Made by a program: the position numbers and the translations under genes. From Minisyncoccia bacterium (GTDB lineage Bacteria > Patescibacteriota > Minisyncoccia > Phycocordibacterales > Phycocordibacteraceae), in NCBI GenBank assembly GCA_038212075.1, contig JBBQUV010000002.1, forward strand, positions 7,343 to 71,342: a stretch of DNA of 64,000 nt, in the 5' to 3' direction. Numbering within the stretch: position 1 is the stretch's first letter; every line of letters starts with the position of its first letter. Below, piece after piece: positions 26,934 through 54,597 of this stretch. The notes below the pieces were generated by a model. It ran no database searches, had not been told where the DNA came from, and saw only the letters and a list, made by a program, of their open reading frames with translations.

Positions 26934-26936
26934 ACG

Positions 26937-34054: not shown

Positions 34055-35617
34055 TTACTCAAATCCAAATAACCCGCGTGGGCGGTACTGAAGCGCTTCG
34101 TGAATGTGCGCGGGCAAGACCTTTTCACTATTTCCTAAATCAGCAATAGTTCGCGCAACGCGCATGACGCGATGATACGCACGTGGAGACAAATCCAAAC
34201 GGTTTGCGGCAGACAGGAGTGTCGTTTTTGCTTCATCGGTAAACTCTGCGCGTTCATCAAGTTCTTTTCCGGAAAGTCGTGCATTTACCGCGCCCTTCTT
34301 CCCTGCTCGTTTCTCTGCACGCCCTCGTGCACTAGTCACGCGTTCTCGAACACGTTCTGATTTTTCTCCCGTAGAAAGTTTTGCAAGCGATTCGTGTGGA
34401 ATGTGTGCAACCTCTACCCATAAATCTAAACGGTCAACGATAGGGCGTGAAATTTTTCGCGCTTGTTTAAGCGCCGCACGCACGGCGACTTCCGCGTCTG
34501 CGCTCAGTGTGTTTGCCGGGTTCATTGCGGCAACAATCATGCAGTCAGCAGGAAAGGTAATGGTTGCTTTGGCGCGAGATACGGTAACCGCACGGTCTTC
34601 AAGCGGTTGCCGCAGTGCCTCAAGCACCCTTGATTCAAATTCAACAAATTCATCAAGAAACAGCACTCCTTTATGTGCCAAGGTTACCTCACCCGCTTTT
34701 GGGTAGGCGCCACCACCCACAATCGCCGTGTGCGAAGTGGTGTGGTGCGGCGCACGAAACGGTGGCCAGAACACTGCCTCACCTTCTTGGAGCGTTCCAG
34801 CAGTTGAGTGAATGGCAGTAACCTCAAGTACTTCGTCCGGCGTGAGCGGCGGTAAAATACCAGAAAGCGCACGCGCAAGCATCGTTTTTCCTGTTCCAGG
34901 TGGGCCATAGAGCACTATGTTATGTCGTCCTGCCGCGGCAATTTCAAGCGCACGTTTCGCACTTTCCTGTCCTTTTACTTCACCCAGATCAATAGTGGGT
35001 ATCGGGATACTGGTGCGTTTTTGTGCAATGACTTTTGGTAACATTTTCTCACCCTTCAAATGAAGCGCAAGCTCTTCAAGTGTTTTTGGTGCGTACACGG
35101 TCATTCCTTCGGCAAGAAGCGCCTCGCGTGTATTTCCAAGTGGTACGTATACGGTGATGATGTTGGCACGCTTTGCGGCAAGTACTTGTGGAAGAATGCC
35201 ACGCACACTGCGTAGTGTCCCATCAAGAGCAAGCTCACCAGCAAAGAGCGCGGGTGTTTTTTGTTCGGGTAGGTCGCCTGCCGCAATTAAATAACACAAC
35301 GCGAGTGGAACATCGTAATGGGAACCCTCTTTTTTCAAATCTGCTGGCGACAGTGAAAGAATGATGCGTTTGTTTTGCGTCTTTGGCGATTTAAACCCCG
35401 AGTGACGAATGGCGGCGCTAATGCGGTCGCGCGATTCTTCAACCGCTTTATCTGGAAGTCCGACGACGGAAAAAGAGTGAAGTCCACGCGTGAGATCGGC
35501 CTCTATGGTAACGAGTTCAGCGTTTGCGCCGACCGGCTGAGCGGCGCTAAGTTTTGCATAGCCGCGACTTTCGTCTTTCTTTTTCTTCACTGGTGCAAGC
35601 GGTTTTTGTTCAGTCAC
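34055..35617 (-). CDS. comM: YifB/ComM-family Mg-chelatase-like AAA+ ATPase (competence protein ComM).
   Basis: 520 aa, with an N-terminal Lon-protease-like domain and an AAA+ module ([13 protein letters not shown]). Confidence 0.85.
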
Positions 35618-36064: not shown

Positions 36065-37747
36065 CTACTGTGTTCTTGTTGCGGAAAGACGGGCGAGAAG
36101 TACGGAGAATGCGGTTTCGTCGCGAGCAATGACCAACGTGTTTTGGTCGCGGTATCCGTACAGGAAGAGTGTTTTTCCATTTGCATCTTTGTATGCTCGC
36201 ACGTCGTGGCTGTCGACAACTTCGTCGACAAAGTGCGCGCGTCCAATGCCGGCAGGAACGAGTGGTGGAGGCAGTGGTTGTGTGGTGCTTGCTGTGGTTG
36301 TGCCGATTACCATCGCTGTTTGCGGATAGGGTGGGTAAAGTGGCGCGAAGTCGCTCCCCATAGTTGCTTCCCACGAAAGCATTCCCGCGAAGGTGCGTTC
36401 ATAGGATGTTGCGGCGAGTACAAAAAATACGCGCGTTTCATCGCCTGCGTGTACGACACCAACAGTGCTGTTATCACCGATATTGCGAAGCAAAATGTCT
36501 GGCGTGGAAAGGTTCAGTGCCTTTATGAGGGTGCCACCTCCAACGGTTGATGTTGCTGATACCGCAAGATACAACACACGCACTGTTCCAATTGGTGTTG
36601 CGGTGTTTTCTGCGTCACGAAGTGCAGTAACCAGTGAACCGCCCTGTCCGGAAATGGTCGCCGACTCATCTCCAGCAATAAGTGTTGGAGGAGCATTGGT
36701 AATGATGGAAATAGGCTGTGTTCCCGTAAAGAAGGTATAGCTGTAGTACAAAAGAAGTGACCCGCCAATAAAGAGCGCCGCTCCGCCAAGCATGTATGCA
36801 AGCCCAAGGTTTTGTTTTGGTGCTTCTACACTTTGCGGCTGTAGGGCTCCTCCCGCGTCTGCTTGCGCGGCGTACACAGAAAATCCCGATGACTGTTGCC
36901 GATTTAGTTTGTTAGAAAAATCATCGGTATAGGTTCGAAGGCGTTCTGGTTCTTGTACAGCAACTACCGGAGCGAGTTTTTGTATAGGGGCAGGCGGGGG
37001 TGTGTATACCGGCACCGCTTCTGGTTTTGGTGCGGGGAAGACTGGCGGCGGAGGGAGGTTCTGTTTTTTATATGTGTCCACTTTTGTGCGCAAGCGCGCC
37101 AACACCACTTCACGCTCCTCGACATCGTTTTTTGCTTCTTCGGGTGGTTTGAATGTCGGCGCAAACACTTCCACTGCTTCTGGTGCGCGCGGTTTTTGCC
37201 ACACGGGTGCGGTAACTGGTATATAACTTTGCTGTACCGGAGGTGTCGTCGTCGGCATGCCGAAAATAAACGCAAAGAGCTTTGACGTGAACGAAAGTTT
37301 TTTTCTTGTTGCTGGGCCTTCCCACTCTCTGGGTGTTGTTGCTTCTGTCGCGGCTAACTGTATTGGCGGTTTTGTTGGCACCGGCAAGTTTTTCTTTGTA
37401 AGTTGCGGTAGATGTGGCGCTTCAATGATTGGTTCAGAAGCGGACATCTTTGCTACGGTTTCAGATAGTGAAGGACGAAGCGGTTTAGGTGGTGGAGGCG
37501 CCGGCGCCGGTTGAATGGAAACCGGTGGTGGGGTTGGGGCAATAGGTTTTGGAGGAGCCTGTACGACAGTTTGAGGCACCGGCGCAACCACTGGTGCTGG
37601 AGCACCAGTGAGTGTTGCAACATCATCGGCGTAGGTGCGCACTACTCGTTTTGGGTTTGTGGGGAAGGTTCGTTCTTGTATTGTCACACCCACTTCACTT
37701 GCGAGTGTTTTTGGTTGGACGATGGGTTGAGTATCTGCCATGAGCAA
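36065..37747 (-). CDS. Proline-rich membrane-associated hypothetical protein.
   Basis: 560 aa. Long PxxP/AP-rich low-complexity N-terminal half, one TM segment (LGLAYMLGGAALFIGGSLLLYY) and a globular C-terminal domain. Confidence 0.45.
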   Translation of the reverse strand: MLMADTQPIVQPKTLASEVGVTIQERTFPTNPKRVVRTYADDVATLTGAPAPVVAPVPQTVVQAPPKPIAPTPPPVSIQPAPAPPPPKPLRPSLSETVAKMSASEPIIEAPHLPQLTKKNLPVPTKPPIQLAATEATTPREWEGPATRKKLSFTSKLFAFIFGMPTTTPPVQQSYIPVTAPVWQKPRAPEAVEVFAPTFKPPEEAKNDVEEREVVLARLRTKVDTYKKQNLPPPPVFPAPKPEAVPVYTPPPAPIQKLAPVVAVQEPERLRTYTDDFSNKLNRQQSSGFSVYAAQADAGGALQPQSVEAPKQNLGLAYMLGGAALFIGGSLLLYYSYTFFTGTQPISIITNAPPTLIAGDESATISGQGGSLVTALRDAENTATPIGTVRVLYLAVSATSTVGGGTLIKALNLSTPDILLRNIGDNSTVGVVHAGDETRVFFVLAATSYERTFAGMLSWEATMGSDFAPLYPPYPQTAMVIGTTTASTTQPLPPPLVPAGIGRAHFVDEVVDSHDVRAYKDANGKTLFLYGYRDQNTLVIARDETAFSVLLARLSATRTQ

Positions 37748-39620: not shown

Positions 39621-40226
39621 CTATGCAAAGTATGCTCTCAATTTCTGGTAATCGCTGAATACTTCGTTTTGAAGCTTCGGGTACGCGATTTTATTTTGGA
39701 AATCCCTATCAATTTTTGGCAGTGCCCAAGCGGAAATTTCTTCTCGCGTCTGGGATGCTTTCCTCCTTGTTTCTGCGTGTTGATAAAAATCAGTTTGCAA
39801 ATGCATTACCGCGTCTCCTGCCGCCATAGCTTTCCCTTCTAGAGTTTCAGGACGTACATCCCCACGACAGCTGTGTTTTGCGATAGCATCATCCACAACG
39901 ATCGCTATTTCTTCATCGGTAAAATGTGATGCCCGTAAAAAGTCGCGCGCGATTTCAAAACTTTTTTGTACATGTTCTGGATTTTCTCGTTTCATCACTG
40001 CATCTGCAACGTCGTGTAAAAGACCGGCTGCGGCGGCAAGTTCTGGATTGCCTCCGTATTCTTGCGCGATTTTCTTCGCAGATTCTGCGACAGGTAATAC
40101 ATGTCCTTCATATATCCAGTCTGCCCATTCAGCACGATCCGGATGTTTTGCTTGGTAGAGTTCTTCCACTCGAGGTTTCAACTGGTTAAATTTTTCCATT
40201 GATACTGTTTTCTCGTATTTTTCCAT
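39621..40226 (-). CDS. HD-domain phosphohydrolase.
   Basis: H...HD motif (GLLHDVAD) in a helical protein. Confidence 0.65.
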   Translation of the reverse strand: MEKYEKTVSMEKFNQLKPRVEELYQAKHPDRAEWADWIYEGHVLPVAESAKKIAQEYGGNPELAAAAGLLHDVADAVMKRENPEHVQKSFEIARDFLRASHFTDEEIAIVVDDAIAKHSCRGDVRPETLEGKAMAAGDAVMHLQTDFYQHAETRRKASQTREEISAWALPKIDRDFQNKIAYPKLQNEVFSDYQKLRAYFA

Positions 40227-40232
40227 AGATGG

Positions 40233-40871
40233 TTACCCAACAAGGAGGTGAAATACGTAATTCACCAGAAGTGAAAATGGACCGACAAAGAAAATGGAAA
40301 AGACGACGAGAACGAGAATTAGTCCAACAATGCCGCCTTGTTTAATACGGTCGTCAAAGTCGCGCAGGTAGGTTGCAAAACGGTACGGAAGAATACCGCG
40401 AAGGGTTGTGTACCCGTCAAGTGGTGGAAGTGGAATGAGATTAAACAAACCAAGGAATAGATTCACAAATGCCGCTACTGCGGCGATTTGAATAAACGGA
40501 TCAGGAAGCGTTCCGGCTCCAAAGCGCACCGCAAGGCCAAGCACGAGCGCAAGAAAAAGATTGGTTGCAGGACCAGCCGCGGCTACCATAGCCTCACCCC
40601 ATCGTTGATTTTTTAAATTGTAGGGGTTATAGGGCACTGGTTTTGCCCACCCGAAGAGAATCCCTGCGTTACTAAACACCAGAAATGCAGGTACAAGAAT
40701 AGAGCCGACAGGGTCAATATGCTTTAGTGGGTTTAAAGTCAGACGTCCTTCAAGTCGGGCGGTCGGGTCGCCAAGTGAATGCGCGGCGTATCCGTGGGCA
40801 ACTTCGTGAATAACAATAGAGAAAATAAGGATGGCGAGCTCGAAGGCGATCATGAGTGGGTCGGTTTGCAT
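40233..40871 (-). CDS. M50-family (site-2 protease-like) membrane zinc metalloprotease.
   Basis: HEVAHGYAAH (HExxH) lies within a TM helix. Multi-TM, 212 aa. Confidence 0.75.
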   Translation of the reverse strand: MQTDPLMIAFELAILIFSIVIHEVAHGYAAHSLGDPTARLEGRLTLNPLKHIDPVGSILVPAFLVFSNAGILFGWAKPVPYNPYNLKNQRWGEAMVAAAGPATNLFLALVLGLAVRFGAGTLPDPFIQIAAVAAFVNLFLGLFNLIPLPPLDGYTTLRGILPYRFATYLRDFDDRIKQGGIVGLILVLVVFSIFFVGPFSLLVNYVFHLLVG

Positions 40872-40904
40872 GGCTAGAGGTTATTGTGCTAGCATGCGGG
40901 AACT

Positions 40905-41147
40905 ATGGCAAGGGAATGCGCAATCACAGGCAAAACGACTCAGATAGGTGGGCGGTACTCCAACCGTACCCGTGCAACCCAATTTAATCCAACAGGAAAG
41001 GTTCGCCGTAAGGCAAATCTTCAGAAACGCCGTATTTTCGTTCCAGAAATCAACAAGACTATTATCGTTGACCTTTCGGTAAAGGGACTTCGCGAAATCA
41101 AGAAGAACGGCGCCTTCGCCACCCTAAAGAAAGCAGGCGTTATTTAA
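40905..41147 (+). CDS. rpmB: 50S ribosomal protein L28.
   Basis: 80 aa, MARECAITGKTTQIGGRYSNRTRATQ... Confidence 0.8.
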   Translation: MARECAITGKTTQIGGRYSNRTRATQFNPTGKVRRKANLQKRRIFVPEINKTIIVDLSVKGLREIKKNGAFATLKKAGVI

Positions 41148-41155
41148 GGCTTATG

Positions 41156-41182
41156 AAAAACCCCGCGAAAGCGGGGTTTTTC
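41156..41182. terminator. Bidirectional hairpin terminator (AAAAACCCCGC-GAAA-GCGGGGTTTTT) between rpmB and the convergent ComEC-MBL gene.
   Basis: Read from the sequence. Confidence 0.65.
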
Positions 41183-42056
41183 ATTTGAGTACCACGCTCG
41201 TACCGTCGCTCACAAAATCCAGTGTGCCGCGGTCTATTGTGGAGTAGATGGTCGCTCCTTCGTTTTTAATACGAGAGATGGCTTCTGGAGCAGGATGCCC
41301 GTAGGAGTTATGGGCTCCCGCTGAAATAGCGACAACTGATGGGTGTACTGCAGAAAGCCACGCGTCACTACTTGAGTTCTTGGAACCGTGATGCCCTGCT
41401 TTCAACACGTCACTTTGTAAATTGCCGTCCTTACCATCTAAACGCACAAGCCAACCCTCCTGTTCGGAAGGTAAGTCACCCGTGAGCATAAAAGACGTAG
41501 ACCCGTACACCACATGAAGAACCACAGAGCCGCTGTTTGTTTCCATTTTTGAAACATCGCGATCCGGGTAGAGCACATCGGCATACGCTCCCCCACCCAA
41601 ATTGAGCCGCATACCACGTCGCGCTATAACACGCGTAATACCTGGCTCTGCTTTAGCCGCCGCAAGTACCGCAGTAGTTGCCGCGGTGGTGTTTGGAATA
41701 CCAGGCTCCATAAAGTACGAAACGGCATAGCGGCTAAATACCGAAGGTAGCCCGCCAATGTGGTCTTTATCAGGATGTGTTTCAACCAGCATATCTATAG
41801 AGTGGTCAAAAAGACCAAGTTCCCTTCCAAGCGGCGTGAGCACCACACTACTTGGTCCGCCATCCACGAGTACCTGCACGCCTGTCGGGCTTTCTATCAA
41901 AATGGAATCCCCTTGCCCAATATCAAGTATGGAAACATGCAGTTCGTGGGGGTGGGCAGAAAAAAGTGCCGAAAACACCGCAATATTCAGCCATACCAAA
42001 AATGCAAAAATAAGATGGGGTATGTACGGGCGCATAGACTCTATAGTACTTGGCAC
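41181..42056 (-). CDS. ComEC/Rec2-type metallo-beta-lactamase domain protein, encoded apart from the ComEC channel gene.
   Basis: N-terminal TM, ILDIGQGDSILIE and HPDKDH (the HxHxDH-like MBL motif). The domain is typical of ComEC C-termini. Confidence 0.7.
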   Translation of the reverse strand: MPSTIESMRPYIPHLIFAFLVWLNIAVFSALFSAHPHELHVSILDIGQGDSILIESPTGVQVLVDGGPSSVVLTPLGRELGLFDHSIDMLVETHPDKDHIGGLPSVFSRYAVSYFMEPGIPNTTAATTAVLAAAKAEPGITRVIARRGMRLNLGGGAYADVLYPDRDVSKMETNSGSVVLHVVYGSTSFMLTGDLPSEQEGWLVRLDGKDGNLQSDVLKAGHHGSKNSSSDAWLSAVHPSVVAISAGAHNSYGHPAPEAISRIKNEGATIYSTIDRGTLDFVSDGTSVVLK

Positions 42057-42126
42057 ATAGGGGATATTTGCCTTTATATAATCTATATGTTATAATCATG
42101 TGGGGTAATACGCCGCGCGTGCGGTA

Positions 42127-42339
42127 ATGGCGGAGACCAACATGGAGTTTGCAAGAAGAATTGATGTCCTCCGGCGAGGACGAAGACCTAGAGGTAGGCC
42201 TTTGTTGTGGATAGACGCAAAAACGCGCACCGCAATGAAGGTCTTGTCCCCTCGGGAACAAGGTCTCGCCGAAGCACTTATACTCGTGACGGCGCAAACA
42301 CGCGCCGAACACGAGAAACCGACTTCGCTCGTCAATTAA
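42127..42339 (+). CDS. Possible small arginine-rich protein, or part of an ncRNA, in a 355-nt intergenic region.
   Basis: Upstream lie a TATAAT-like element and an AT-rich tract. A GGAG precedes an internal ATG (MEFARR...). The bidirectional terminator at about 42358-42388 follows. No homology evidence. Confidence 0.25.
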   Translation: MAETNMEFARRIDVLRRGRRPRGRPLLWIDAKTRTAMKVLSPREQGLAEALILVTAQTRAEHEKPTSLVN

Positions 42340-42357
42340 GTCGACGAGCAGAAATCG

Positions 42358-42388
42358 GAAAAGGGTATCCTCGCGGATACCCTTTTTC
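42358..42388. terminator. Bidirectional hairpin terminator (AAAAGGGTATCC-TCGC-GGATACCCTTTTT).
   Basis: Read from the sequence. It serves the convergent minus-strand gene 42413..42901. Confidence 0.6.
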
Positions 42389-42412
42389 GCATTTCACTAC
42401 CGTGTGCGTCGT

Positions 42413-42901
42413 TTACATTGAAACGTGCGCTTCCCCACCAGCTCCCTTCTCTTTTCCGATAGCGTCGCGTGCCTCAACGCTGTTGCCAGCATTGGCTATA
42501 AGGGCACCGCTTGCGTCAACAATAGGTACTTTCTCCCGTACGCTCTCGGTAAACCCGAGTGCATTTTTGATATTGGTATCAAATTCAGGAGAAGCGACCA
42601 TTTCCATCGTAAGCGGCTGACCTTTCAATTCTGCATCCTTTATGACAAAGGCAACGGCACGAGTAACCTCACTCTCGGTGAACTTGCCACCTGCCGCTTC
42701 GTGAACCTTTTCTGCTACGGCGTTTGAAACCGCGCTTGGCTCTACGTCATCTGACTCCGCCCGAGCTCCTCCTGTAAACATTTTGTTGAGATTGAACATA
42801 TTTTTATAGTTGAGGTGTACAGGGGTAGTATCGCACGAGGCATACCACCTGCAAGTCGGGTTTTGCATAGGTGCTGTGGTAGAGTTCTGGACATATGACA
42901 T
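42413..42901 (-). CDS. Hypothetical protein, possibly Asp23/Gls24-like.
   Basis: The 162-aa ORF overlaps the sodA start by a few nt. The resemblance to the Asp23 family is weak, and the true start may be internal (MFNLNKMF...). Confidence 0.3.
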   Translation of the reverse strand: MSYVQNSTTAPMQNPTCRWYASCDTTPVHLNYKNMFNLNKMFTGGARAESDDVEPSAVSNAVAEKVHEAAGGKFTESEVTRAVAFVIKDAELKGQPLTMEMVASPEFDTNIKNALGFTESVREKVPIVDASGALIANAGNSVEARDAIGKEKGAGGEAHVSM

Positions 42902-43488
42902 ATGAAAAACGAACGTTTACCCTTCCGGAATTGAAGGGCATCTCAAAGAAGCAGATAGACGTGCATCTTGCGCTATACGAAGGCTACGTGAAGCATGTGA
43001 ATTTGATTATGGAGAAAATTGCCGCGATGAAAGAAACAGATGCCGAAGGTAATGCGTACGCTATTGCTGAAGTGCGTCGTCGTCTTGGATTTGAGTTCAA
43101 TGGCATGCGTATGCATGAATATTACTTTGAACAATTTGAGGGTGAAAAAAGTGGAAACCCAGAATCGGGGTTGGCAAAAGCGGCTACAGAAAAATATGGA
43201 AGTGGTGAAAACTTTTTGAAGCACATTCGCGAAGTTTCTGGTTCTCGCGGTATCGGCTGGGTGGTGGTGTATTACGACAGTGTTGGGAAACAGCTTCATA
43301 CGGCGTTTGTGAATGATCACGAACTTGGCACGCTCGCCACGCTTCCCGTTATTCTCGCGCTCGATTTGTGGGAGCATGCGTATATGGTTGATTACGTTCC
43401 TGCAGAAAAAAAGAATTACATTGATGCATTTTTTGAAAATCTTAATTGGAGCGTGTGCGAAGCACGCTTTGAAAAAGCAGTTGCATAA
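42895..43488 (+). CDS. sodA: Fe/Mn superoxide dismutase.
   Basis: Metal ligands and DLWEHAYMVDY (the DxWEHAYY signature), 197 aa. Confidence 0.9.
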   Translation: MTYEKRTFTLPELKGISKKQIDVHLALYEGYVKHVNLIMEKIAAMKETDAEGNAYAIAEVRRRLGFEFNGMRMHEYYFEQFEGEKSGNPESGLAKAATEKYGSGENFLKHIREVSGSRGIGWVVVYYDSVGKQLHTAFVNDHELGTLATLPVILALDLWEHAYMVDYVPAEKKNYIDAFFENLNWSVCEARFEKAVA

Positions 43489-43500
43489 CGAATAAAAAGT

Positions 43501-43544
43501 CAGAACATAAAAAGAGTCGCTCACGCGACTCTTTTTATGTTCTG
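43501..43544. terminator. Bidirectional terminator hairpin (CAGAACATAAAAAGAGTCGC-TCAC-GCGACTCTTTTTATGTTCTG). Its right arm overlaps the comEC stop codon.
   Basis: 20-bp stem read from the sequence. Confidence 0.65.
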
Positions 43545-45013
43545 ATTCTCAACGTGCGTGGTTTTGGCAGTCTCTGCAACCGTACGACCCATCGCCACAG
43601 TAGTGCATACATAAGTACGACAAAGAAAAATGAAAACGCGGGGATGATGACGTGTGCAAACGGTAACTGTGCTGAATATATCCCAACCGAAATGATGTAC
43701 GAAAGAAACATAAACGCAGGTATACCGATAAACGGTGCAATCCATGGAATCACCATGCCAACAATCCCAGCGATACATGACAAGAGCATCGTGAAAGGAA
43801 TGACCGGGAGCACCAAAATATTTGCCGGAAGTGAAACGAGTGAAAAATTTCCCGTAAGGTATACGAGAAATGGAAGTACCGCAATTTGTGCGGCAAGGGT
43901 GGTGGCGACGATTTCACGCAGGAACATATTTTTTATAAACAACAAACGCACTTCAACAAGCGGCGTGCCAATGATAAGTCCGAGCGTCGCAAGAAATGAT
44001 AGCTCAAACCCGGGGTCATATACTAGCGAAAACGGATTCCACATAAGCATAACCAACAGCACAAAAAAGAGCGCACGCAGTGCGTTGTACGTGCGGCCAC
44101 TTGCGCGTGCGTAAAGCGCCAGACACGCCATAAGTCCTGCGCGCAGTGCAGATGTTCCGGAACCGGCCGCAACAACAAAGAGCAAGATACTTATTCCTGC
44201 AGATGAAAGTGCGATACGTTTTGGCAAAAATGACAATCCGCGAAGTACTGCTTCGGCGATAATCATGACGTTGTATCCGGAAAGCACCACAATTTGTATG
44301 AGACCGGAAATAGTAAAGGCGTTCACGAGTTCTTTTCCGAGCCCTTGTTTGCCGCCAGTAAGAAGTCCTTCAGCAAGTGCGGCGGAAGGTTCTGGTAACG
44401 CGTTTTCAATACCGTTTGTGAATATATGTTTCGCACGATAGAGCATACCGATGGCACGCGTAAAAAAACCGGACGGTGGCGCAGTGCTTTGTATGTGCGC
44501 GTCTTTAATAAGCGCGAACACGCCGTCTTTCGCCAAAAAGGTATCGTAGGCAAAGGTTCGTCCACCATCGGTTGCAAACGGTTCCGGTTTTAAAAAGGTG
44601 CCCGACACCGTTATAGCTTCGCCATACGATACGCTTGGATAGAGTGGTGCCACGGCAAGAATGAGAGACGTGGCGTCGCCGTACGTAACCATTACTGTGA
44701 CACGTTGGCTCGTCTCACGAATGTCGGGATCAACGGCTATGGTGCCGTGAAGTAGTACGTTGGCACCAACAAGTGGTAGGAATGGGCGAGGCATTGTTTT
44801 TTGCGCAAGCTCCGTGCGAGCAAGTCCAAGACTGAATGCAATGAGAGCGAGCGCGCAGGTTGCAAAGAGTTTTTCTGGGTGTGCGTACCAAAGAATAAAA
44901 AAAGTTCCTGATAACACTGCCACAAACAGAACGCTTCCCCACCCAAGAGCGAGTGTGGAACACGCAATAATACCAAGCGCAAAACCAAGTACAGAAATAA
45001 AGAAGTAGTCCAT
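43535..45013 (-). CDS. comEC: ComEC/Rec2 DNA internalization channel (DUF4131 plus competence domain). It has no attached MBL domain.
   Basis: 492 aa and multi-TM. Competence-domain features (GLLTGGKQGL, SGLIQIVVLSGYNVMII). Confidence 0.75.
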   Translation of the reverse strand: MDYFFISVLGFALGIIACSTLALGWGSVLFVAVLSGTFFILWYAHPEKLFATCALALIAFSLGLARTELAQKTMPRPFLPLVGANVLLHGTIAVDPDIRETSQRVTVMVTYGDATSLILAVAPLYPSVSYGEAITVSGTFLKPEPFATDGGRTFAYDTFLAKDGVFALIKDAHIQSTAPPSGFFTRAIGMLYRAKHIFTNGIENALPEPSAALAEGLLTGGKQGLGKELVNAFTISGLIQIVVLSGYNVMIIAEAVLRGLSFLPKRIALSSAGISILLFVVAAGSGTSALRAGLMACLALYARASGRTYNALRALFFVLLVMLMWNPFSLVYDPGFELSFLATLGLIIGTPLVEVRLLFIKNMFLREIVATTLAAQIAVLPFLVYLTGNFSLVSLPANILVLPVIPFTMLLSCIAGIVGMVIPWIAPFIGIPAFMFLSYIISVGIYSAQLPFAHVIIPAFSFFFVVLMYALLWRWVVRLQRLPKPRTLRIRT

Positions 45014-45039
45014 GCAAGCGAACTACCATTCAGTATAAA

Positions 45040-45456
45040 TTATGTTCCTCGGTCCATTGCTTTGTTTGCAAGCGCGTCGGCGTCTTTATTTTTTTCGCGA
45101 GGAATGTGTGTGAAGGTTACCTTTTGGAAACAAGGAATCATTTCTTTTACGCGTGCGGCAAGCGGCTTCAGGTTTGGATGTTTTATTTTATAGTTGCCTT
45201 TCATTTGTTCCACAACCAGTTTGCTATCCATTTCCACATCCACCGTCGCTGTTTTTGCTTCAACGCCAAGACGCAAAAGTAACAGCTCAATCCCCCGCAC
45301 AATCGCGGTATACTCGGCGACGTTGTTGGTTGTGTGTCCCAAAAAATCCGCCACTTCGCCAATAACAGTGCCGTCGTTGTCGCGAATGACCGCGCCAGCA
45401 CCGGCTGGCCCCGGGTTTCCGCGTGAACCACCGTCAGCATGAATAGTAAATCTCAT
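45040..45456 (-). CDS. rnhA: Ribonuclease HI-like protein.
   Basis: MRFTIHADGGSRGNPGPAGAGAVIRD... The RNase H fold keeps its catalytic D/E/D residues. The likely start is the internal Met at about 45456. Confidence 0.65.
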   Translation of the reverse strand: MRFTIHADGGSRGNPGPAGAGAVIRDNDGTVIGEVADFLGHTTNNVAEYTAIVRGIELLLLRLGVEAKTATVDVEMDSKLVVEQMKGNYKIKHPNLKPLAARVKEMIPCFQKVTFTHIPREKNKDADALANKAMDRGT

Positions 45457-45478
45457 AGAGTAATCATACGCGCAGTTC

Positions 45479-47188
45479 CTAGCGAACGGAAATGAGACGC
45501 AGACGCGGTCGGTTTTTTCGTGAAAATTGATCACGTTCAATATTCGCCAACACACTTACCTTCCTTCCCTTTTCAAAGAGGTGCAATTTTTTTCCAAGCT
45601 CGCGTTTTGCATAAAACGAAATTGCCTCAATATCACTGAATTCACCAGCAATTAACAATTTCAAATGTTCATTTGTTTTTCCAAACCACGAAACATCAGC
45701 GAGCGTAACATCACGAAATAAAAACACCGGTTTAGGGTTTCCTTCACCATACGGCGCAAGCCGCTCAACGCGTGAAAGTAAGGTGAATGTTGCTTCGTCC
45801 GGAGTAATCGCGATGTCGGCGCGAGCAAGTTCATCTTCAGTTGCTTTCGGAAGGCTCGCCAAACCTTTTACTAAGTGTTCTTCAAGAAAAAACACCGTAT
45901 CGTCTTTCACACTGAATCCGCCGGAGTAGGCGTGTCCGCCAAATTCTGCGAACGCCTCTTTTGCGGCAGTCATTAGTTTCACCAAATGTATGTTTCCATA
46001 GGAACGACACGAACCTTTCAGTGTTTGATTTGCTTCGCGTCCCCATAAAAATACTGGTCGTTCGTATTCTTCAGAAATACCACTAGCAACAAGCCCAAGG
46101 AGTGCTGGCTTCCACTCAGGGTCGCCAAGCGCGATGACTGAAGGTAGTTCGCCTTTTTCTTTTCGTTCGGCAAGTTTTTCATGCACGCCACGCGTAATCG
46201 CGGCCGCCGCAGAGCGGCGGCCGCGATTTGCCGCCTCAAGTTTTTTCGCGAGCGTTTCTGCGAGAACTTCGTCGTCTGTTGTAAAAAGTGTAAACGCATC
46301 GCGGGGATCGCCCATACGGCTTGCCGCATTCACCCGTGGCGCGAGCATAAATCCAACATCGTCTTCCGCGATGGTGCGCTGATTGGTACGCATTACTTTG
46401 CATAGTTTTTGTAGACCAATGCGCGGTGATTTTCGTAATACCAAAAGGCCATATTTTGCGAGCACGCGATTTTCTCCGGTAAGGGACACCATATCGGCGA
46501 TGGTCGCGAGCCCCACCATATCAAGAAGCCACTTTTCCCACCCGACAGGAACTTTTTCACGAAGTGTCGGTTCTACAGCGAGTGTCGCGCACACGAGTTT
46601 CCATGCCATAGCCGCGCCGCACAATTCGCGAAACGGATACGTCTCTCCCTCTTGCTTGTGATCTACCACAATAGCGTTTGGAAGTTCTGCCTGCGGCAAA
46701 TGGTGATCGGTGACAATCACATCCATCCCGAGTTCGCGTGCCCGTGCAATCGCTTCGTTGTCGGTGATGCCGGAGTCCACCGTAATAACGAGTGTTGCTC
46801 CGTTCTTCGCAAGTTTTTCAATGCCCATTTCGTTCACGCCATACCCTTCTTCATGGCGGTGTGGAATATAATTTTCAAAATTCGCTTCGGCTTTTTTCAA
46901 AAAATCGTGAAGCACCACTCCACCGGGGATGCCGTCGCAATCGTAGTCGCTCCATACCGCAATGTGCTCGTTTGTGGTGATCGCTCGTGCAAGCCGTGCG
47001 GCCGCTTCCGGCATATTTTTTAGCAACAACGGATCGTGGATATGTTCGTCATAGGACGGACTTAAAAACACCAACGCTTCTTCTTTAGTAGTAACACCAC
47101 GCCGAGCAAGAAGCGCCGCAATAAAGTCATCATATTCAGAAAGTTCAGTCCGGAGCGTGTCCGGAAGCGTGTCGTGGAGGTCGAACAT
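45479..47188 (-). CDS. recJ: Single-stranded-DNA-specific exonuclease RecJ.
   Basis: DHH motifs (SDYDCDGI, VTDHH) and a DHHA1 domain. 569 aa. Confidence 0.85.
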   Translation of the reverse strand: MFDLHDTLPDTLRTELSEYDDFIAALLARRGVTTKEEALVFLSPSYDEHIHDPLLLKNMPEAAARLARAITTNEHIAVWSDYDCDGIPGGVVLHDFLKKAEANFENYIPHRHEEGYGVNEMGIEKLAKNGATLVITVDSGITDNEAIARARELGMDVIVTDHHLPQAELPNAIVVDHKQEGETYPFRELCGAAMAWKLVCATLAVEPTLREKVPVGWEKWLLDMVGLATIADMVSLTGENRVLAKYGLLVLRKSPRIGLQKLCKVMRTNQRTIAEDDVGFMLAPRVNAASRMGDPRDAFTLFTTDDEVLAETLAKKLEAANRGRRSAAAAITRGVHEKLAERKEKGELPSVIALGDPEWKPALLGLVASGISEEYERPVFLWGREANQTLKGSCRSYGNIHLVKLMTAAKEAFAEFGGHAYSGGFSVKDDTVFFLEEHLVKGLASLPKATEDELARADIAITPDEATFTLLSRVERLAPYGEGNPKPVFLFRDVTLADVSWFGKTNEHLKLLIAGEFSDIEAISFYAKRELGKKLHLFEKGRKVSVLANIERDQFSRKNRPRLRLISVR

Positions 47189-47231
47189 TGGGTGATTGTA
47201 TCAAACAACCTCCCTGCGGTATGCTTTCTCC

Positions 47232-47639
47232 ATGGAAGAGACTATATTTGCGAAAATTATTAAACGAGAAATACCTGCGGAAATTATCTACGAAGATGCT
47301 GAAACGCTCGCATTTCTTGATATTGCACCCGTGGCGGAAGGTCATACGCTCGTTATTCCTAAAAACCCTGCACGCAACGTTTTTGATATAGAGCCGGAAT
47401 CATTTGCGGCCATGGCAAAAACGGCAAAGAAAGTTGCTATCGCACTGAAGACAGCACTCGGTGCAGATGGAGTGAGTATTGCCATGAACAACGAACCCGC
47501 AAGCGGGCAAGTAGTTTTTCACGCACACTTCCACATTATTCCTCGTTTTGATAACGACAAACTGGTGCAGTGGCCACAGCGACCATATCCAACAGGCGAA
47601 GCGAGTGTTGTAGCTGAAAAGATACGCGCCGCGTTTTAA
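47232..47639 (+). CDS. HIT-family nucleotide hydrolase.
   Basis: Histidine triad HAHFHIIPR. The likely start is MEETIFAKII. Confidence 0.8.
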   Translation: MEETIFAKIIKREIPAEIIYEDAETLAFLDIAPVAEGHTLVIPKNPARNVFDIEPESFAAMAKTAKKVAIALKTALGADGVSIAMNNEPASGQVVFHAHFHIIPRFDNDKLVQWPQRPYPTGEASVVAEKIRAAF

Positions 47640-47688
47640 CTATGGCGACTCCTGTCGGTTAAACACTCGATCCAGTGGAACAGTATAG

Positions 47689-48840
47689 CTACCCGAGTGC
47701 CGCGATTCCGGGAAGCGTACCTTCTGCAAGAAAATCAAGCATGGCGCCACCACCGGTTGAAATAAAGGAAAAGCGATCATTTAACTGAAGTTTTTCTATT
47801 GCCGCCACTGTGTCACCGCCACCCACAATGGAGTAAGCGTTACTTCTTGCGATATGTGCGGCGAGCGCCTCAGTCGCATCTACAAAACCATGCTCGTACT
47901 GCCCCAAGGGACCGTTCCAAAGTATGGCATTTGCGCCTGCAATGTCGTTAGCCAGCATTGCGACTGTTTGGGGGCCTTCGTCCAGAATTGCTTCCCCATC
48001 TTGTACGTCGTCGACAGTGGCAACGCGTCCAGCGTCATGACTGCTTCCGGGTGGCGCAATAACATAATCGCTTGGTAGTACCAGCCGTGGATTTTTCAAA
48101 AGTTCTGCAAGACGTGCCGGATCGCCATGAGAGGTAAGCGATGAACCAACAGAATGCCCCTTTGCTTGCATAAAGTCATTTGCGAGTGCCCCACCCACAA
48201 ACACACGGTCGTACAATGCAAGTAATCGCGTCACCACGGGTTCTTTTGTAGAAAATTTTGCGCCGCAAATAAGAGCAAGTGAAGGCTTTTTTGGCGTGAG
48301 TGCTTTGGTGAGTTCACGTACTTCTTCTTCAAGTAACAGCCCCGCGTAGGACGGTAGGAGTTTTGGGACGCTCACCATAGAGGCGTGTTCGCGATGACAA
48401 TTATCAAAAGAATCTTGCACAAAGATATCAGCAAGTGCCGCGAGCTCTATCGCAAACGTCTTGTCATTTTTCATCTCACCTGGGTTACGCCGCAGATTTT
48501 CAAGCATCAATACCTCACCCGACGGAATTGCATGTACGGCATTTCGGGCTTCAGAACCCACGGATGTTTCGCAGAACGCAATGCGAGGAATAAATGTTTT
48601 CATTGCTTCCCACATGGGGCGGAGTGTTTCGGTGCCTACGCCGGACGTGTGGCTCTCTCCGGTAATATGACTTATTAACACAACGCGTGCGCTTTTTTTC
48701 CGAAGATACTCAATCGTCGCGAGTGATTTACGCAACCGAAATGTATCGGTCACTTTCCCGTTTTCAACCGGCACATTCAGTGATACGCGCGCAAGCACCG
48801 TAACGTTCTCAAGCGTCGGTATGTCGCGTACTGTTTTCAT
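47689..48840 (-). CDS. pgk: Phosphoglycerate kinase.
   Basis: 383 aa. The N-terminal substrate-binding region and C-terminal GGGA/GGGD motifs are characteristic of PGK. Confidence 0.85.
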   Translation of the reverse strand: MKTVRDIPTLENVTVLARVSLNVPVENGKVTDTFRLRKSLATIEYLRKKSARVVLISHITGESHTSGVGTETLRPMWEAMKTFIPRIAFCETSVGSEARNAVHAIPSGEVLMLENLRRNPGEMKNDKTFAIELAALADIFVQDSFDNCHREHASMVSVPKLLPSYAGLLLEEEVRELTKALTPKKPSLALICGAKFSTKEPVVTRLLALYDRVFVGGALANDFMQAKGHSVGSSLTSHGDPARLAELLKNPRLVLPSDYVIAPPGSSHDAGRVATVDDVQDGEAILDEGPQTVAMLANDIAGANAILWNGPLGQYEHGFVDATEALAAHIARSNAYSIVGGGDTVAAIEKLQLNDRFSFISTGGGAMLDFLAEGTLPGIAALG

Positions 48841-48843
48841 GTT

Positions 48844-49587
48844 CTACGAAACTGTTTTAACGAGTGCAGAGTACATCGCCGGGTCAACCGAGGCATGGCC
48901 AACTAAAAACCCGTCCACACCGCTTCCTGCCGCAAGCTCGCGTGCATTTTCTGGTTCTGCTGAACCGCCATAGAGCACGCGTATTTTTGCGGGTGCTTTC
49001 CCCGGCAAATACTCACCGAGTACTTTGCGAATGTACAAAATCATTTCAGCAAGTTCGTGGGCAGGAAGTGCATCCGCGGCGCTCTTCCCTATCGCCCATA
49101 TTGGTTCGTATGCAATTACCACCGCCATGCGTTCTTTCTGTGAGAGTGGCGCAAACGCACTTGCAATTTGTGCACGTACAAATGAAAGATATTCCGCGTT
49201 AGTGTCACGGGTATGTTCACCAACACACAAAATAGGCGCAAGGCCGTGCGCGAGCGCGTGGCGCATTTTTTCCGCAATTACTGCATCCGATTCCCCCATC
49301 GCTCGACGTTCAGAGTGCCCGATAATCACATAGGAAATTTCAAGCGCGGCGAGCGTCTGCGCAGTCATTTCTCCTGTTTTTGCACCGCCGGTCGTTGCCG
49401 ATACGTCTTGTGCGGCAAACTGTACTCGCGATTTGTTTTTTGCGGCTAGAAGTGCAAGATACGGTGCGGCAGGAGCGAGCACGAGTTCGTGTTTTTTTTC
49501 TTTGGAAAGACGTTTTGCAAGCGCAACAAGCTTTTTCGCTTTCGCACTATCCTCAACATACGCTTTCCAATTGGAAACAATGAGCAT
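48844..49587 (-). CDS. tpiA: Triosephosphate isomerase.
   Basis: SNWK near the N-terminus, AYEPIWAIG (catalytic Glu loop), and GGS in the phosphate-binding region. 247 aa. Confidence 0.85.
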   Translation of the reverse strand: MLIVSNWKAYVEDSAKAKKLVALAKRLSKEKKHELVLAPAAPYLALLAAKNKSRVQFAAQDVSATTGGAKTGEMTAQTLAALEISYVIIGHSERRAMGESDAVIAEKMRHALAHGLAPILCVGEHTRDTNAEYLSFVRAQIASAFAPLSQKERMAVVIAYEPIWAIGKSAADALPAHELAEMILYIRKVLGEYLPGKAPAKIRVLYGGSAEPENARELAAGSGVDGFLVGHASVDPAMYSALVKTVS

Positions 49588-49612: not shown

Positions 49613-51022
49613 CTATTTTTGGTGCCAGTCCATAAGCTCGTAATCGCTTGCAACAGCAGGAGTAAAAGCAGGCGGATTGCTTGCCATGTTGCGATCAAAG
49701 GAATCTATACGGGTTTGGTATCCCCCATCACTTCCCCCACACCCGTTTATCCATCTGGTACCAGTGCGTTTATTTGAAACGGTTGTGCCAAGAATAGTGA
49801 GCGTTCCTCGCGGTTCGTAGGTTCCAGGACAAGAATAGAGGTTTCGACCAAAAGCACCGCTTTGCGCGATGAAAATACCGTCCAAGGTCGTATTATTTGG
49901 GGCGTTCGGTCCGACAAGTACATCATCTTGTGTGATAAGTGTAAGGCCGGCAGTACCGTCATACGCACTGTAAACAATGTTGTTTGGGATAATAGTGTCC
50001 GCGGAACCGCTTGCGCTGGTTACGTCCGCAACTACAACAGTTATTTTTTTGGTGATAGTGCCTTCAATCCACGCACGGTTTTGAACGAAAATAAGACCGC
50101 AATTAGATGGAAGCGCATACGTTCCCACTAAGGACTCGGTCTTGATTATAGAATTATCGGTTCCACCTCCCGCAGTTCCGTCTACAAAGGCAACCACCGT
50201 CGGTGCAGTAATTTTTGTAACGTGCTTTACCGTCACCGTACCGTCTGCGTTGAAGATGAGATGGTATCCGCCTTGCGTGTTTGAGGGGTTTCCATCGCCC
50301 CAATACTTTCCGCTTGCTTGGGCAGTTGTCTTTAGATTCGTAAAGTCTGCAGATATCGCACTAAAGTCTACTTGCGGTGTCGGGAAATCCCATAGGTTGG
50401 CGTTACTCCCTGTGCCAAACACGCCGTTTTTTGTCGCTGTCGGGGAACAGCCGAATGACGATGTGCATGACCACGTTGCAAGCGAGCTTGAAACCGGTGA
50501 ATTAGCAGTGCCGTCCATACGCACTCCGCCGTTTGAATGATACGGTCCTTGAATTACACGATCTGCGCCTGCCCAGACGCTGTCATTTAATATATAGGAA
50601 TAGGTTCCGACCGAAGGGCGTGCATAGCGTGCGTAAACTGTTTTTGATGCGAGTGAGTTATCTGACGGCGTGCCCACTGACGTAATGTCTATGGACGTGG
50701 TTTGACCACATGAAGTATTGCCGGCCACCGTAAGCGAAATGGTTCCGGCGGTGCCACCCTCTGGATCGGCATAAGGAAGTGAATAGGGTCCCGCGTGCCC
50801 AGTACCGTTTGTGGTATCGCCCGGATAGTGTCCGAGAAACCACTTGTAGTACTCAATACCTGCCTCAGCGATGGTAAAGCCTTCACTTTGTGCATATTTC
50901 ACTGCCTGCAGACGATTCTGAATCAGTACATAGCTACAGAGTGCGCCGATAAGGCCAACAAAGATGGCACCAAACACAAGAGCGAGCAACATAATAAATC
51001 CTTTGCGGGGGTGACGCTTCAT
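49613..51022 (-). CDS. Large pilin-like or pseudopilin-like protein with a prepilin-type hydrophobic N-terminus but no Glu at +5.
   Basis: The likely start is MKRHPRKGFIMLLALVFGAIFVGL (a KGF cleavage-like site). About 470 aa. It is Thr/Ser/Gly-rich and probably beta-rich. Confidence 0.45.
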   Translation of the reverse strand: MKRHPRKGFIMLLALVFGAIFVGLIGALCSYVLIQNRLQAVKYAQSEGFTIAEAGIEYYKWFLGHYPGDTTNGTGHAGPYSLPYADPEGGTAGTISLTVAGNTSCGQTTSIDITSVGTPSDNSLASKTVYARYARPSVGTYSYILNDSVWAGADRVIQGPYHSNGGVRMDGTANSPVSSSLATWSCTSSFGCSPTATKNGVFGTGSNANLWDFPTPQVDFSAISADFTNLKTTAQASGKYWGDGNPSNTQGGYHLIFNADGTVTVKHVTKITAPTVVAFVDGTAGGGTDNSIIKTESLVGTYALPSNCGLIFVQNRAWIEGTITKKITVVVADVTSASGSADTIIPNNIVYSAYDGTAGLTLITQDDVLVGPNAPNNTTLDGIFIAQSGAFGRNLYSCPGTYEPRGTLTILGTTVSNKRTGTRWINGCGGSDGGYQTRIDSFDRNMASNPPAFTPAVASDYELMDWHQK

Positions 51023-51023
51023 A

Positions 51024-51629
51024 CTAGTTGGTGCGCAGATTGCGGAGTGTTGCGGTGCCAATAAGGGTGAACGTGAGAGGTGCACGACGAGTGTCTACGT
51101 CTACACCAATCACCACAGACACGGACGCTATTTTGCTTATGTCTACAGGGACTGGCAATTCTGTCCCGGTGTTGTCGTAGTAATGGAAGAGTGGTGTTGA
51201 AGTGCCGTTTTGCACATACGATGCAATTGTAGTGAGTACTTCGGTTTGCCCGCCGTAGCTTGGTGGGTTGCCTCCCGGGTTTGTGACACCGCGTGTCAGG
51301 GTTGTTGAGGCAAGATAGTAATGAATTTGTTCCACTACTCCGTCATTGTCGACATCAGCATAAAACGTAATAGTGGACGTTGCGGCAGTATGTATAGGAT
51401 ACGAGCCGTCGGCGCCATACGTTGATTCGCGCAAGTTTTCAAGCGCAAATTCAACACCGCGTCGCGCGTTGTCGGTCGCAGTGGATTGTTGGAAGATAAA
51501 CGTGTTTGATTTGTACACAAACGTAATCATACTGGTGAGTGCAATGCTCACAACAGCAACAAGAGAGATGACAACCATCATCTCAACGAGCGTCATGCCT
51601 TTTTTGGATTTAGTTGAGTACTGTTGCAT
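51024..51629 (-). CDS. Type IV pilin or pseudopilin (class III signal peptide).
   Basis: SKKG|MTLVEMMVVISLVAVV has Glu at +5 after the Gly cleavage site. The likely start is MQQYSTKSKKG at about 51629. Confidence 0.7.
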   Translation of the reverse strand: MQQYSTKSKKGMTLVEMMVVISLVAVVSIALTSMITFVYKSNTFIFQQSTATDNARRGVEFALENLRESTYGADGSYPIHTAATSTITFYADVDNDGVVEQIHYYLASTTLTRGVTNPGGNPPSYGGQTEVLTTIASYVQNGTSTPLFHYYDNTGTELPVPVDISKIASVSVVIGVDVDTRRAPLTFTLIGTATLRNLRTN

Positions 51630-53310
51630 AGGTAGTGAATCCGGACACTGATACACCACTATACGAAGCGGTGAGTGCTCCAGATGTGGCAGAAATGGTA
51701 TATGCCGCACTTGCGGTGAGACTTCCGAAATACGCATTTCCACAACTCGTTGTTGTTACGGTTTGTGAAAATCCGGTACGAGACAGGGTGACCGAAGCTC
51801 CTGCAAGTGGTTGACCCGCGGCATTTTTTGCGGAAACGAGTAATGCGTTCGTGCTTGAAGGCCCTAGAATAAGCCGGTTGTCGTTACTCGAGCCGGCAAG
51901 GATGTTGTACGGCGCCGTTCCGCACGCATCGGTAATATCGTATCCGGAAACAGACACCGCATAACTATCCCACTCAAGCGTTTGTGTTGTTGACGCCGCC
52001 GCACCCGTTGTGGAATTAACGGTGGTTTTATAGATAGGGGCGCCCGCACCGGTAGAACCGATAGTTTTCGCGCCTTGGAGAGTGAACGAAACATTCGCAA
52101 GGGGGAGAGGGCCATGGGTATAAGCAATCCCCCAGTCGAGCACCGAGGGTGCTGATACCGCCGCCGCGGTTACTTCCGCCTTAAGAGCAAGCGCCGGATA
52201 GGTTGACGTAGAAATTCCTGAAAGATCTACAGGGAATGAGCTAAAGCCAGTACTGTTACCAGAAAGTGCAGAATCAGGAATGAGTGTTCCATTCCCGTCA
52301 GTAATATGAACCACGGCACTTGTGCCGGCAGGTGTTGATAGTGTTGAAGACGCATTCACCCACGTCGCAATATAAGAAGGTGCAACCGCAGTGGAGCGCC
52401 CGCTCCCAGGAGAAAGAAAACCACCAGCCCCATCTGAAGTATTGGTCAGCGCACCGCCCGACACGTTCGTATTAATTAGCGCAGTAGTGTTTGATGCGTC
52501 GGTGAAGGTATCCGTAAATGCATTGGACGCAATAGGAGAAAACGTGCGAAGGATAAGTGTGGCGAGCGCGTCTATGGCAAAGGTAGATGACGTGGTTACA
52601 TTTTGTACCACCGTGAGGTGTCCGGGGCTTGGATTTTGGTTGTTTGAATCGCGGTCGTAGGTTTGTGCAGTGGAATATCCGGACTTAGTCACACTTACGT
52701 GGTAATTCGTCGATGTCGCCGCTCCCGGTAAATACACCGTTCCTAAAGCATCTGAAAAAGTCGTGAGGTTTACACTCGGTGTTGTACTTGGATTGGTGAA
52801 CGTAACTGATGCACCTGCTACCGCCGCACCAACTGCGTTCACAATAATCGCCTTGAGTGTTCCCCCACCAGTAGTGGTTTCAATAGAAGGGGGCGTAATG
52901 TTTGAAATGATAGAAAACTGATGCGTCATGTTGTGCGCCGTAAACCCCACACTCACCTTTGCCCGTTTGTAGTCGGTGGTAATGCCGTTTGAGTCTGCTC
53001 CCCCTGTTCCGTCTGCGGGGTCGTCGTAGTAATCAATAAAAGTACGCATGGTGTAATTTATGGAGTCTTCAGTTGTCGTTGCGTTTTGTACGATGGTGCC
53101 GGCAGGAATACCACCCAGCGTACCGACTGAGTCATAGGGAAGCGAACGAATATACTCCATCTGGCTATTTGCTATTGCGGTTGCCGCCGCCGTTTCGGTG
53201 GCGAGAGTAGAAATTTGTTCCGAAGCACGCAGGAGTCCAAAAATGGCGGTAAATATCGTGGCGGCAATAGCTGAACCGACGAGTACGTCGATGAGAGTCA
53301 TACCGCGCAT
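51610..53310 (-). CDS. Large minor-pilin-like protein (prepilin N-terminus plus a Thr/Ser-rich domain of about 530 aa).
   Basis: MRG|MTLIDVLVGSAIAATIF has Asp at +5. The likely start is near 53310. Thr/Ser/Ala-rich and probably beta-rich. Confidence 0.55.
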   Translation of the reverse strand: MRGMTLIDVLVGSAIAATIFTAIFGLLRASEQISTLATETAAATAIANSQMEYIRSLPYDSVGTLGGIPAGTIVQNATTTEDSINYTMRTFIDYYDDPADGTGGADSNGITTDYKRAKVSVGFTAHNMTHQFSIISNITPPSIETTTGGGTLKAIIVNAVGAAVAGASVTFTNPSTTPSVNLTTFSDALGTVYLPGAATSTNYHVSVTKSGYSTAQTYDRDSNNQNPSPGHLTVVQNVTTSSTFAIDALATLILRTFSPIASNAFTDTFTDASNTTALINTNVSGGALTNTSDGAGGFLSPGSGRSTAVAPSYIATWVNASSTLSTPAGTSAVVHITDGNGTLIPDSALSGNSTGFSSFPVDLSGISTSTYPALALKAEVTAAAVSAPSVLDWGIAYTHGPLPLANVSFTLQGAKTIGSTGAGAPIYKTTVNSTTGAAASTTQTLEWDSYAVSVSGYDITDACGTAPYNILAGSSNDNRLILGPSSTNALLVSAKNAAGQPLAGASVTLSRTGFSQTVTTTSCGNAYFGSLTASAAYTISATSGALTASYSGVSVSGFTTYATVLN

Positions 53311-53380
53311 CGTCGGCGCCGGAAGGTGCATACCAAAATAATAACGCACGTGCGCCAAGAATGTATCGCGAGCCGTGCGT

Positions 53381-54595: not shown

Positions 54596-54597
54596 AC

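Follow-up and report, generated by a model that had tools for sequence, protein, structure and literature searches.

In a 64,000-nucleotide stretch from the genome of an ultra-small Minisyncoccia bacterium (Patescibacteria/Paceibacteria type; assembly GCA_038212075.1, contig JBBQUV010000002.1; hereafter the window), the DNA-uptake protein ComEC is encoded by two separate genes on the minus strand, one for the membrane channel (43535..45013) and one for a ComEC-type metallo-beta-lactamase (MBL) nuclease with its own N-terminal transmembrane (TM) anchor (41181..42056). An initial annotation, made from the sequence alone, had proposed such a split, and both open reading frames (ORFs) are present with a domain content that fits. 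The split layout is a lineage-wide trait and is not peculiar to this genome, and we consider it likely that the channel and the TM-anchored MBL subunit assemble into a ComEC-like complex.

The channel gene encodes a protein of 492 residues with three N-terminal TM helices, an OB fold (DUF4131), a multi-TM Competence domain and a basic tail, RWVVRLQRLPKPRTLRIRT, at its C-terminal end. Pfam places DUF4131 (PF13567) at residues 22-169 (E 1e-11, 45.3 bits against a cutoff of 31.6) and Competence (PF03772) at residues 217-481 (E 4e-41, 141.8 bits, cutoff 23), with the OB fold placed after the first TM helices and ahead of the Competence domain. The same scan gave no MBL match, in agreement with the earlier claim that this protein lacks the C-terminal nuclease domain. 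The NCBIfam model TIGR00360 (ComEC_N-term) also recognizes the ORF, at 62.6 bits against a cutoff of 36.5. Comparison of architectures among relatives gave the same picture, as all 120 of the 120 best channel homologues carry DUF4131 and Competence and none carries Lactamase_B (PF00753).

The nuclease gene comprises 291 residues as an ORF, although its start is probably the ATG at 42035 (Met8), giving 284 residues, because an identical database protein has this length. Lactamase_B is found at residues 46-246 (E 9e-11, Pfam). Among NCBIfam models the best match is TIGR00361, ComEC_Rec2 (model positions 435-660 of 663, E 6e-32), followed by the enterobacterial ComEC model PRK11539, and the non-ComEC families Avs1a, AHM and 6A-MBL (anti-phage and beta-lactamase) score far lower. 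A phmmer search against all PDB chain sequences returned six matches, every one of them ComEC, the best being the crystal structure of an isolated ComEC nuclease domain, 9IC4 (E 1e-34). The AlphaFold2 model of the ORF (mean predicted local distance difference test score, pLDDT, 88.7) has an MBL fold preceded by a long helix (residues 12-32), and its top Foldseek match in the PDB is again 9IC4 (E 4e-22, TM-score 0.84 normalised to the target, 35% identity). The second match is the pneumococcal phosphorylcholine esterase Pce (1.6e-13), which is likewise the nearest neighbour that the authors of 9IC4 reported for the ComEC nuclease domain (PMC12455585). Full-length ComEC solved by cryo-EM is absent among the Foldseek PDB matches listed for the model, probably because it lies outside that structure library. 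Family profile, PDB sequences and fold therefore all favour the nuclease of ComEC over another MBL, as the initial annotation had supposed.

The N-terminal TM helix in the MBL protein (about residues 12-33; 41958..42023, minus strand) is indicated by hydropathy, which peaks at 2.27 over residues 15-33, by the AlphaFold2 helix and by alignment with fused ComECs. It is flanked by an arginine before and acidic residues after, and the predicted topology would carry the catalytic domain through the membrane to the extracytoplasmic side.

The active site also has the ComEC form. In ComEC nucleases, compared with other MBLs, the second histidine of motif II is replaced by aspartate and the histidine of motif III by asparagine (PMC8579336), and the resulting H-x-D-x-D-H signature has been described also in PMC12455585. 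Motif II of the window protein reads H94-P-D96-K-D98-H99 in translation (41760..41777, minus strand), with aspartate in place of the second histidine. The ComEC-type ligand set is complete, comprising motif II, the motif III Asn174, the bridging aspartate of motif IV and the histidines of the HHGS and GHP motifs, and ten residues (D50, H94, D96, D98, H99, N174, D194, H222, H223 and H254) are invariant across 22 homologues. The 120 best homologues of the MBL protein all contain MBL-family Pfam domains only; 119 of them span 262-302 residues and one has 378, and the named hosts are Patescibacteria, Paceibacterota, Parcubacteria or Minisyncoccia. This protein of about 285 residues is labelled 'competence protein ComEC' in JGI and some NCBI records.

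Judged by alignment, both ORFs are colinear with a single full-length ComEC of known structure, that of chains 30bt/32ks determined by cryo-EM: residues 128-474 of the channel ORF align to residues 143-489, and the MBL ORF matches residues 529-789 (E 5e-34, phmmer). When aligned with fused Chloroflexota ComECs of 780-830 residues, the channel ORF stops just past the last channel TM helix, and the N-terminal TM segment of the MBL ORF matches the helix that links channel and nuclease. On this alignment the TM segment of the MBL protein is the homologue of the final helix that joins channel and nuclease in fused ComEC, and hence the break lies in the variable loop before that helix. The basic tail of the channel ORF suggests that this loop is on the cytoplasmic side. 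The full-length cutoff of TIGR00361 (190 bits) is reached by neither protein (channel, 54.1 bits over positions 125-357; MBL, 110.5 bits over positions 435-660), as would be expected of two halves.

A gap of 1,479 bp separates the two genes, and it holds the two genes named in the initial annotation, a superoxide dismutase and a small ORF. The gene for a divergent Fe/Mn superoxide dismutase (sod; 42895..43488) lies on the plus strand and is assigned by its Sod_Fe_C domain (E 2e-19) and by synteny; its N-terminal domain scores 21.4 bits, under the Pfam cutoff of 27. The small ORF (42413..42901, minus strand; 162 residues) lies in the spacer between sod and the MBL gene, with a hairpin downstream of it at about 42358-42388. 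It is an orphan, lineage-specific ORF, with no match in Pfam or NCBIfam and no tblastn match in 80 related loci, and the roughly 300 bp upstream of the MBL gene likewise gave no DNA or protein match in those loci. The channel gene (stop 43535..43537) and sod (stop 43486..43488) converge on a bidirectional terminator hairpin (43501..43544), found by a terminator scan and by reading of the sequence, with a perfect 20-bp stem and T-runs on both sides.

Given the opposite-strand sod and this terminator, the channel and MBL genes should be separate transcription units. From the gene layout there are thus at least two predicted units, recJ-rnhA-comEC(channel) and, separately, the MBL gene. In the first of these the genes stand close together: 22 untranslated bases lie in one gap and 26 in the other, the latter between the RNase H and channel genes. 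It begins with RecJ, a single-stranded-DNA 5'-3' exonuclease (45479..47188, minus strand; TIGR00644, 484.9 bits against a cutoff of 396.9), followed by RNase HI (45040..45456, minus strand; RVT_3/RNase_H in Pfam and NCBIfam) directly upstream of the channel gene. The RNase H gene probably starts at the ATG at 45456 (Met34), which gives a product of 138 residues, as its homologues have 136-140 residues and match from query residue 34; with this start there is no overlap with recJ. It had been suggested that the split makes DNA translocation and strand degradation separately regulated, and of this the separation of the transcription units is the part that stands.

In order to see how far the arrangement extends, we surveyed 80 loci around relatives of the MBL protein, one per GTDB species, searching their ORFs with the window proteins and judging co-conservation by synteny within 10 kb. 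The window order of channel(+), sod(-) and MBL(+) recurs in 27 of the 80 loci. Channel and MBL genes are directly adjacent in seven; in three the channel is on the same strand with sod undetected, and in one it is on the opposite strand. Fifteen loci carry a fused ComEC, mostly from Chloroflexota/Dehalococcoidia. In a further 14 the MBL stands alone, as the sequence covered, which reached at least 3 kb upstream and as much as 10 kb to either side, contains no channel gene; these include Peregrinibacteria, Clostridium and Solibacillus. The flank was too short to judge in the remaining 13.

In a neighbour-joining, midpoint-rooted tree of the MBL domains, the window and all loci with sod between the two genes form one clade of 39 loci. 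The channel gene is linked upstream on the same strand in all 32 informative members of this clade (27 with sod between, three directly adjacent), and the linkage persists even at 39-65% MBL identity. The adjacent pairs L030, L032 and L038 nest inside the sod-between clade, so that sod was probably lost secondarily there. From the channel side, a metagenome scan with the channel protein yielded only one true relative (L081), and we used instead five look-ups of the context of channel homologues. All five homologues, picked only for long contigs, show channel, opposite-strand sod and then MBL. The two genes are therefore syntenic across a deep clade, and the two-gene arrangement is ancient and fixed in the Paceibacteria-type clade.

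The conservation reaches beyond the two genes. The wider order TIM-PGK-HIT(-)-RecJ-RNaseH-ComEC channel-sod(-)-MBL-(L28)-M50-HD is found in five relatives (L088-L092) and in the window (39621..49587), and the recJ-rnhA-comEC(channel) string is kept across the clade. In relatives the conserved order runs on into a LexA-like S24 gene and a Y-family polymerase. The spacer between sod and the MBL gene varies: L092 has NUDIX genes there, in L001 it is about 1.1 kb long and in most loci it is shorter than 100 bp. It appears to be an insertion hot-spot.

Two further observations came from the survey. The label 'uncultured Candidatus Saccharibacteria' is attached to many GTDB loci that have the Paceibacteria-type synteny, perhaps in error; we regarded it as unreliable and did not take these loci for true Saccharibacteria, as a cultured saccharibacterium has no annotated ComEC-type MBL. 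Separately, two fused Dehalococcoidia ComECs (L039, 1426..3852; L045, 8426..10858) have a degenerate motif II, reading Q-C-Q-S-D-H and Q-P-Q-A-D-H in place of H-x-D/H-x-D-H. Their nuclease domains may be catalytically inactive, as proposed for Streptococcus pneumoniae ComEC.

Based on these data we propose the following working model for the two-gene ComEC. The channel subunit provides the DNA-binding OB fold and the transmembrane channel for single-stranded DNA, with its basic tail probably on the cytoplasmic side. The MBL subunit corresponds to the module that forms the C-terminal, extracytoplasmic, Mn2+-dependent nuclease of canonical ComEC, and it retains the linking TM helix; its N-terminus would be inside the cell, its chain would cross the membrane once and its catalytic domain would lie outside. 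The two polypeptides would dock in the membrane. Incoming duplex DNA, delivered by a type IV pilus, would be held by the OB fold, the non-translocated strand would be degraded by the MBL subunit, and the other strand would pass through the channel to the cytoplasm for processing by RecJ, RNase HI and ComM. Docking is suggested to be needed because a lone ComEC nuclease binds DNA weakly: binding by the isolated MBL domain was undetectably weak, and the domain was strongly stimulated only with a DNA-binding domain in cis (PMC12455585).

The conserved recJ-rnhA-comEC string suggests, speculatively, that imported single-stranded DNA is handed to RecJ. This would agree with the use of DNA uptake for nucleotide supply that has been proposed for bacteria of the candidate phyla radiation (CPR) (PMC6744442), and we found no literature combining ComEC, RecJ and 'candidate phyla radiation'. 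A bolder version holds that ComEC in Paceibacteria is an obligate two-subunit pathway for DNA as a nutrient, made up of the type IV pilus, recJ-rnhA-comEC and the MBL subunit, in which the nuclease is expressed independently of the channel. We regard this as quite improbable. If it were true, the MBL subunit would break down the outer strand outside the cell, RecJ would reduce the imported one to nucleotides, and the cell could switch between 'feeding' and 'transformation' through the nuclease/channel stoichiometry.

It is possible, though we lean away from it, that two genes were the ancestral condition, without fission of a three-domain ComEC, and that other phyla later joined a channel gene to the TM-MBL gene beside it. 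In the reconstruction of Pimentel and Zhang the favoured ancestor had the Competence domain alone, and Lactamase_B was gained repeatedly (PMC6299819); adjacent unfused pairs occur in Berkelbacteria-type and some Paceibacteria loci (L074, L030 and L032). However, the adjacent Paceibacteria pairs nest in the sod-between clade and are hence derived. Furthermore, the fused Chloroflexota clade groups with CPR clades and more fused forms fall in the other main branch, which implies that fusion is widespread around the split clade, a weak argument given the neighbour-joining method and midpoint root.

A second alternative accepts both genes but denies their partnership: the MBL protein, though sharing ancestry and gene neighbourhood with ComEC, would be a nuclease or phosphodiesterase that is anchored at the cell surface and works on its own, perhaps in scavenging extracellular DNA, and would not dock onto the channel. 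Several observations weigh against our docking model or speak for this one. The two genes lie in separate transcription units, and Pce is the second-closest fold. The aromatic 'pin loop' residues of Legionella ComEC, which are reported to be essential there, could not be mapped here, and the corresponding stretch before HHGS has no obvious aromatic pair. In the saccharibacterium Southlakia epibionticum, transformation needs a channel-only comEC (SEML1_0777, 1449 bp, 482 residues), and the annotation of its ML1 genome lists a PF13483 hydrolase and RNase J but no MBL of the ComEC type (PMC10633639); hence a CPR channel can work without an MBL partner. Finally, stand-alone relatives in Peregrinibacteria and Firmicutes (among them Clostridium and Solibacillus) and in others are unlinked to a channel gene, some looking like lipoproteins, with corresponding signal peptides, or like secreted enzymes, so the family can act independently. 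Set against this are the channel linkage in every informative locus of the clade, even among divergent members, the retention of the ComEC linking helix in place of a cleavable signal peptide, the ComEC-specific ligand pattern and the very poor DNA binding of a lone ComEC MBL domain (PMC12455585). We therefore judge an independent nuclease to be unlikely.

That the window simply holds a broken or mis-assembled comEC, through artefact or decay, is exceedingly improbable: two of the adjacent loci, both from Dehalococcoidia, do resemble a frameshift or recent break, their halves abutting (L053 and L076, one with a 4-bp gap and the other with a 30-bp overlap) and each being sister to an intact fused gene, but both window ORFs are intact and 1.5 kb apart across a conserved functional gene and a terminator, and dozens of assemblies made independently show this layout as well. 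A frameshift or pseudogene origin of the window split is ruled out by the intervening conserved gene, the terminator and the lineage-wide synteny.

The variability of ComEC domain profiles is well documented (PMC6299819), and the ComEC-MBL fusion is known to be nearly absent in CPR bacteria (PMC6744442). The fused nuclease domain is missing in almost half of ComEC proteins, and how the non-transforming strand is then removed has been named explicitly as an open question (PMC8579336). In the literature searched we found no description of a ComEC nuclease as a syntenic, TM-anchored, separately transcribed gene encoded in trans, nor of a conserved sod insertion between ComEC genes, and neither ComEC nor competence is brought up in a survey of MBL genes from CPR bacteria (PMC10459063). 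The split ComEC is a variant of a well-known machine and no new mechanism, and the window locus is one ordinary example of this variant. What it means is that in one large Patescibacteria clade the nuclease was not lost but is encoded nearby as its own membrane-anchored protein. Surveys that score such genomes as 'channel-only' need to change accordingly to allow for a nuclease in trans, and the protein of about 285 residues should not be counted as a complete ComEC, as it is by some pipelines. The arrangement is also a natural split counterpart of the in vitro experiment that compared OB fold and nuclease in cis and in trans (PMC12455585), and it would make the roles of translocation and strand degradation separately testable.

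The surroundings had been described as a DNA-processing neighbourhood, which is real, but ordinary housekeeping genes are also included. RNase H, RecJ and a YifB/ComM ATPase (34055..35617, minus strand) were confirmed by Pfam and NCBIfam. Downstream of the MBL gene lie the gene for ribosomal protein L28 (40905..41147, plus strand; 80 residues) and that for a short M50-family membrane metalloprotease (40233..40871, minus strand; Pfam Peptidase_M50), which keeps this position in most Paceibacteria-type loci. A HIT protein gene (47196..47639) is on the plus strand beside recJ. Further nucleic-acid genes are those for a UvrD-family helicase (30249..32174, minus strand), RNase Y (61435..62964, plus strand) and NusA (56561..57982, plus strand).

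Just beyond TIM/PGK, 6-11 kb from the ComEC locus, there is a type IV pilus cluster on the minus strand (49613..56349). It encodes a PilB-like T2SSE protein (54598..56349), a PilC-like T2SSF protein (53381..54595) and a protein of 602 residues that contains a CarboxypepD_reg domain (51610..53418). The cluster also has a pilin-like ORF (51024..51743), whose N-terminus carries a methylation motif, and an ORF of 490 residues without a Pfam match (49613..51085). In L089 a T2SSE gene occupies the same relative position as in the window. Large minus-strand ORFs in 24663..28388 (756 and 483 residues, E <= 1e-4) and in 36065..37747 (560 residues, E <= 1e-5) had no Pfam match at these thresholds, and a 338-residue ORF (28385..29401) gave only a sub-threshold match to the bacterial TSP3 repeat (23.6 bits, cutoff 25). 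These ORFs may encode surface proteins specific to CPR bacteria. Across all 64 kb, an Rfam scan found no family at gathering score, that is, no tRNA, rRNA or riboswitch match.

Compared with canonical three-domain ComEC/Rec2, as in Bacillus subtilis, Neomoorella carbonis (30bt/32ks) and 9IC4, the window proteins have the same N-to-C succession of OB fold, Competence and MBL modules, and they share with it the linking TM helix, the ComEC-type Mn2+ ligand pattern and 35% MBL identity to 9IC4. They differ in being two polypeptides from two predicted transcription units, which are separated by the opposite-strand sod and a terminator. The channel taken alone resembles the 'DC profile' ComEC of Southlakia (SEML1_0777), with the same DUF4131 and Competence layout in about 480-490 residues. 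The ComEC of Helicobacter pylori also lacks the MBL domain (PMC12455585). In contrast to both of these channel-only systems, which have no known or annotated ComEC-type MBL, the nuclease here is retained in trans beside the channel gene.

A separate nuclease also serves Streptococcus pneumoniae. Its EndA belongs to the beta-beta-alpha-metal nuclease family. Like the MBL subunit proposed here, EndA is a separate membrane-bound enzyme, and on the outer side of the membrane it breaks down the strand that is not used for transformation (PMC8579336; PMC12455585). Unlike the window protein it is not described as having an MBL fold, and pneumococcal ComEC, in contrast to the channel here, keeps a fused MBL domain that is probably inactive.

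The MBL subunit can also be compared with stand-alone MBLs of the same subfamily, with 33-38% identity, from Solibacillus (L059), Clostridium (L061 and L063), Paraclostridium (L072) and Syntrophaceticus (L077). The motifs GQGDS, H-x-[DH]-x-D-H and HHGS are present in these as well, and their N-termini likewise have a hydrophobic segment, but several have lipobox or signal-peptide-like N-termini in place of the ComEC linking TM helix, several have the canonical H-x-H-x-D-H, and most have no channel gene in the region examined. In the Paraclostridium locus a channel gene of 428 residues lies 4 kb from the MBL gene on the other strand. The ComEC of Clostridiaceae and Planococcaceae has been reported to have lost both accessory domains (PMC6299819), and the 'lost' nuclease of these families may persist in trans.

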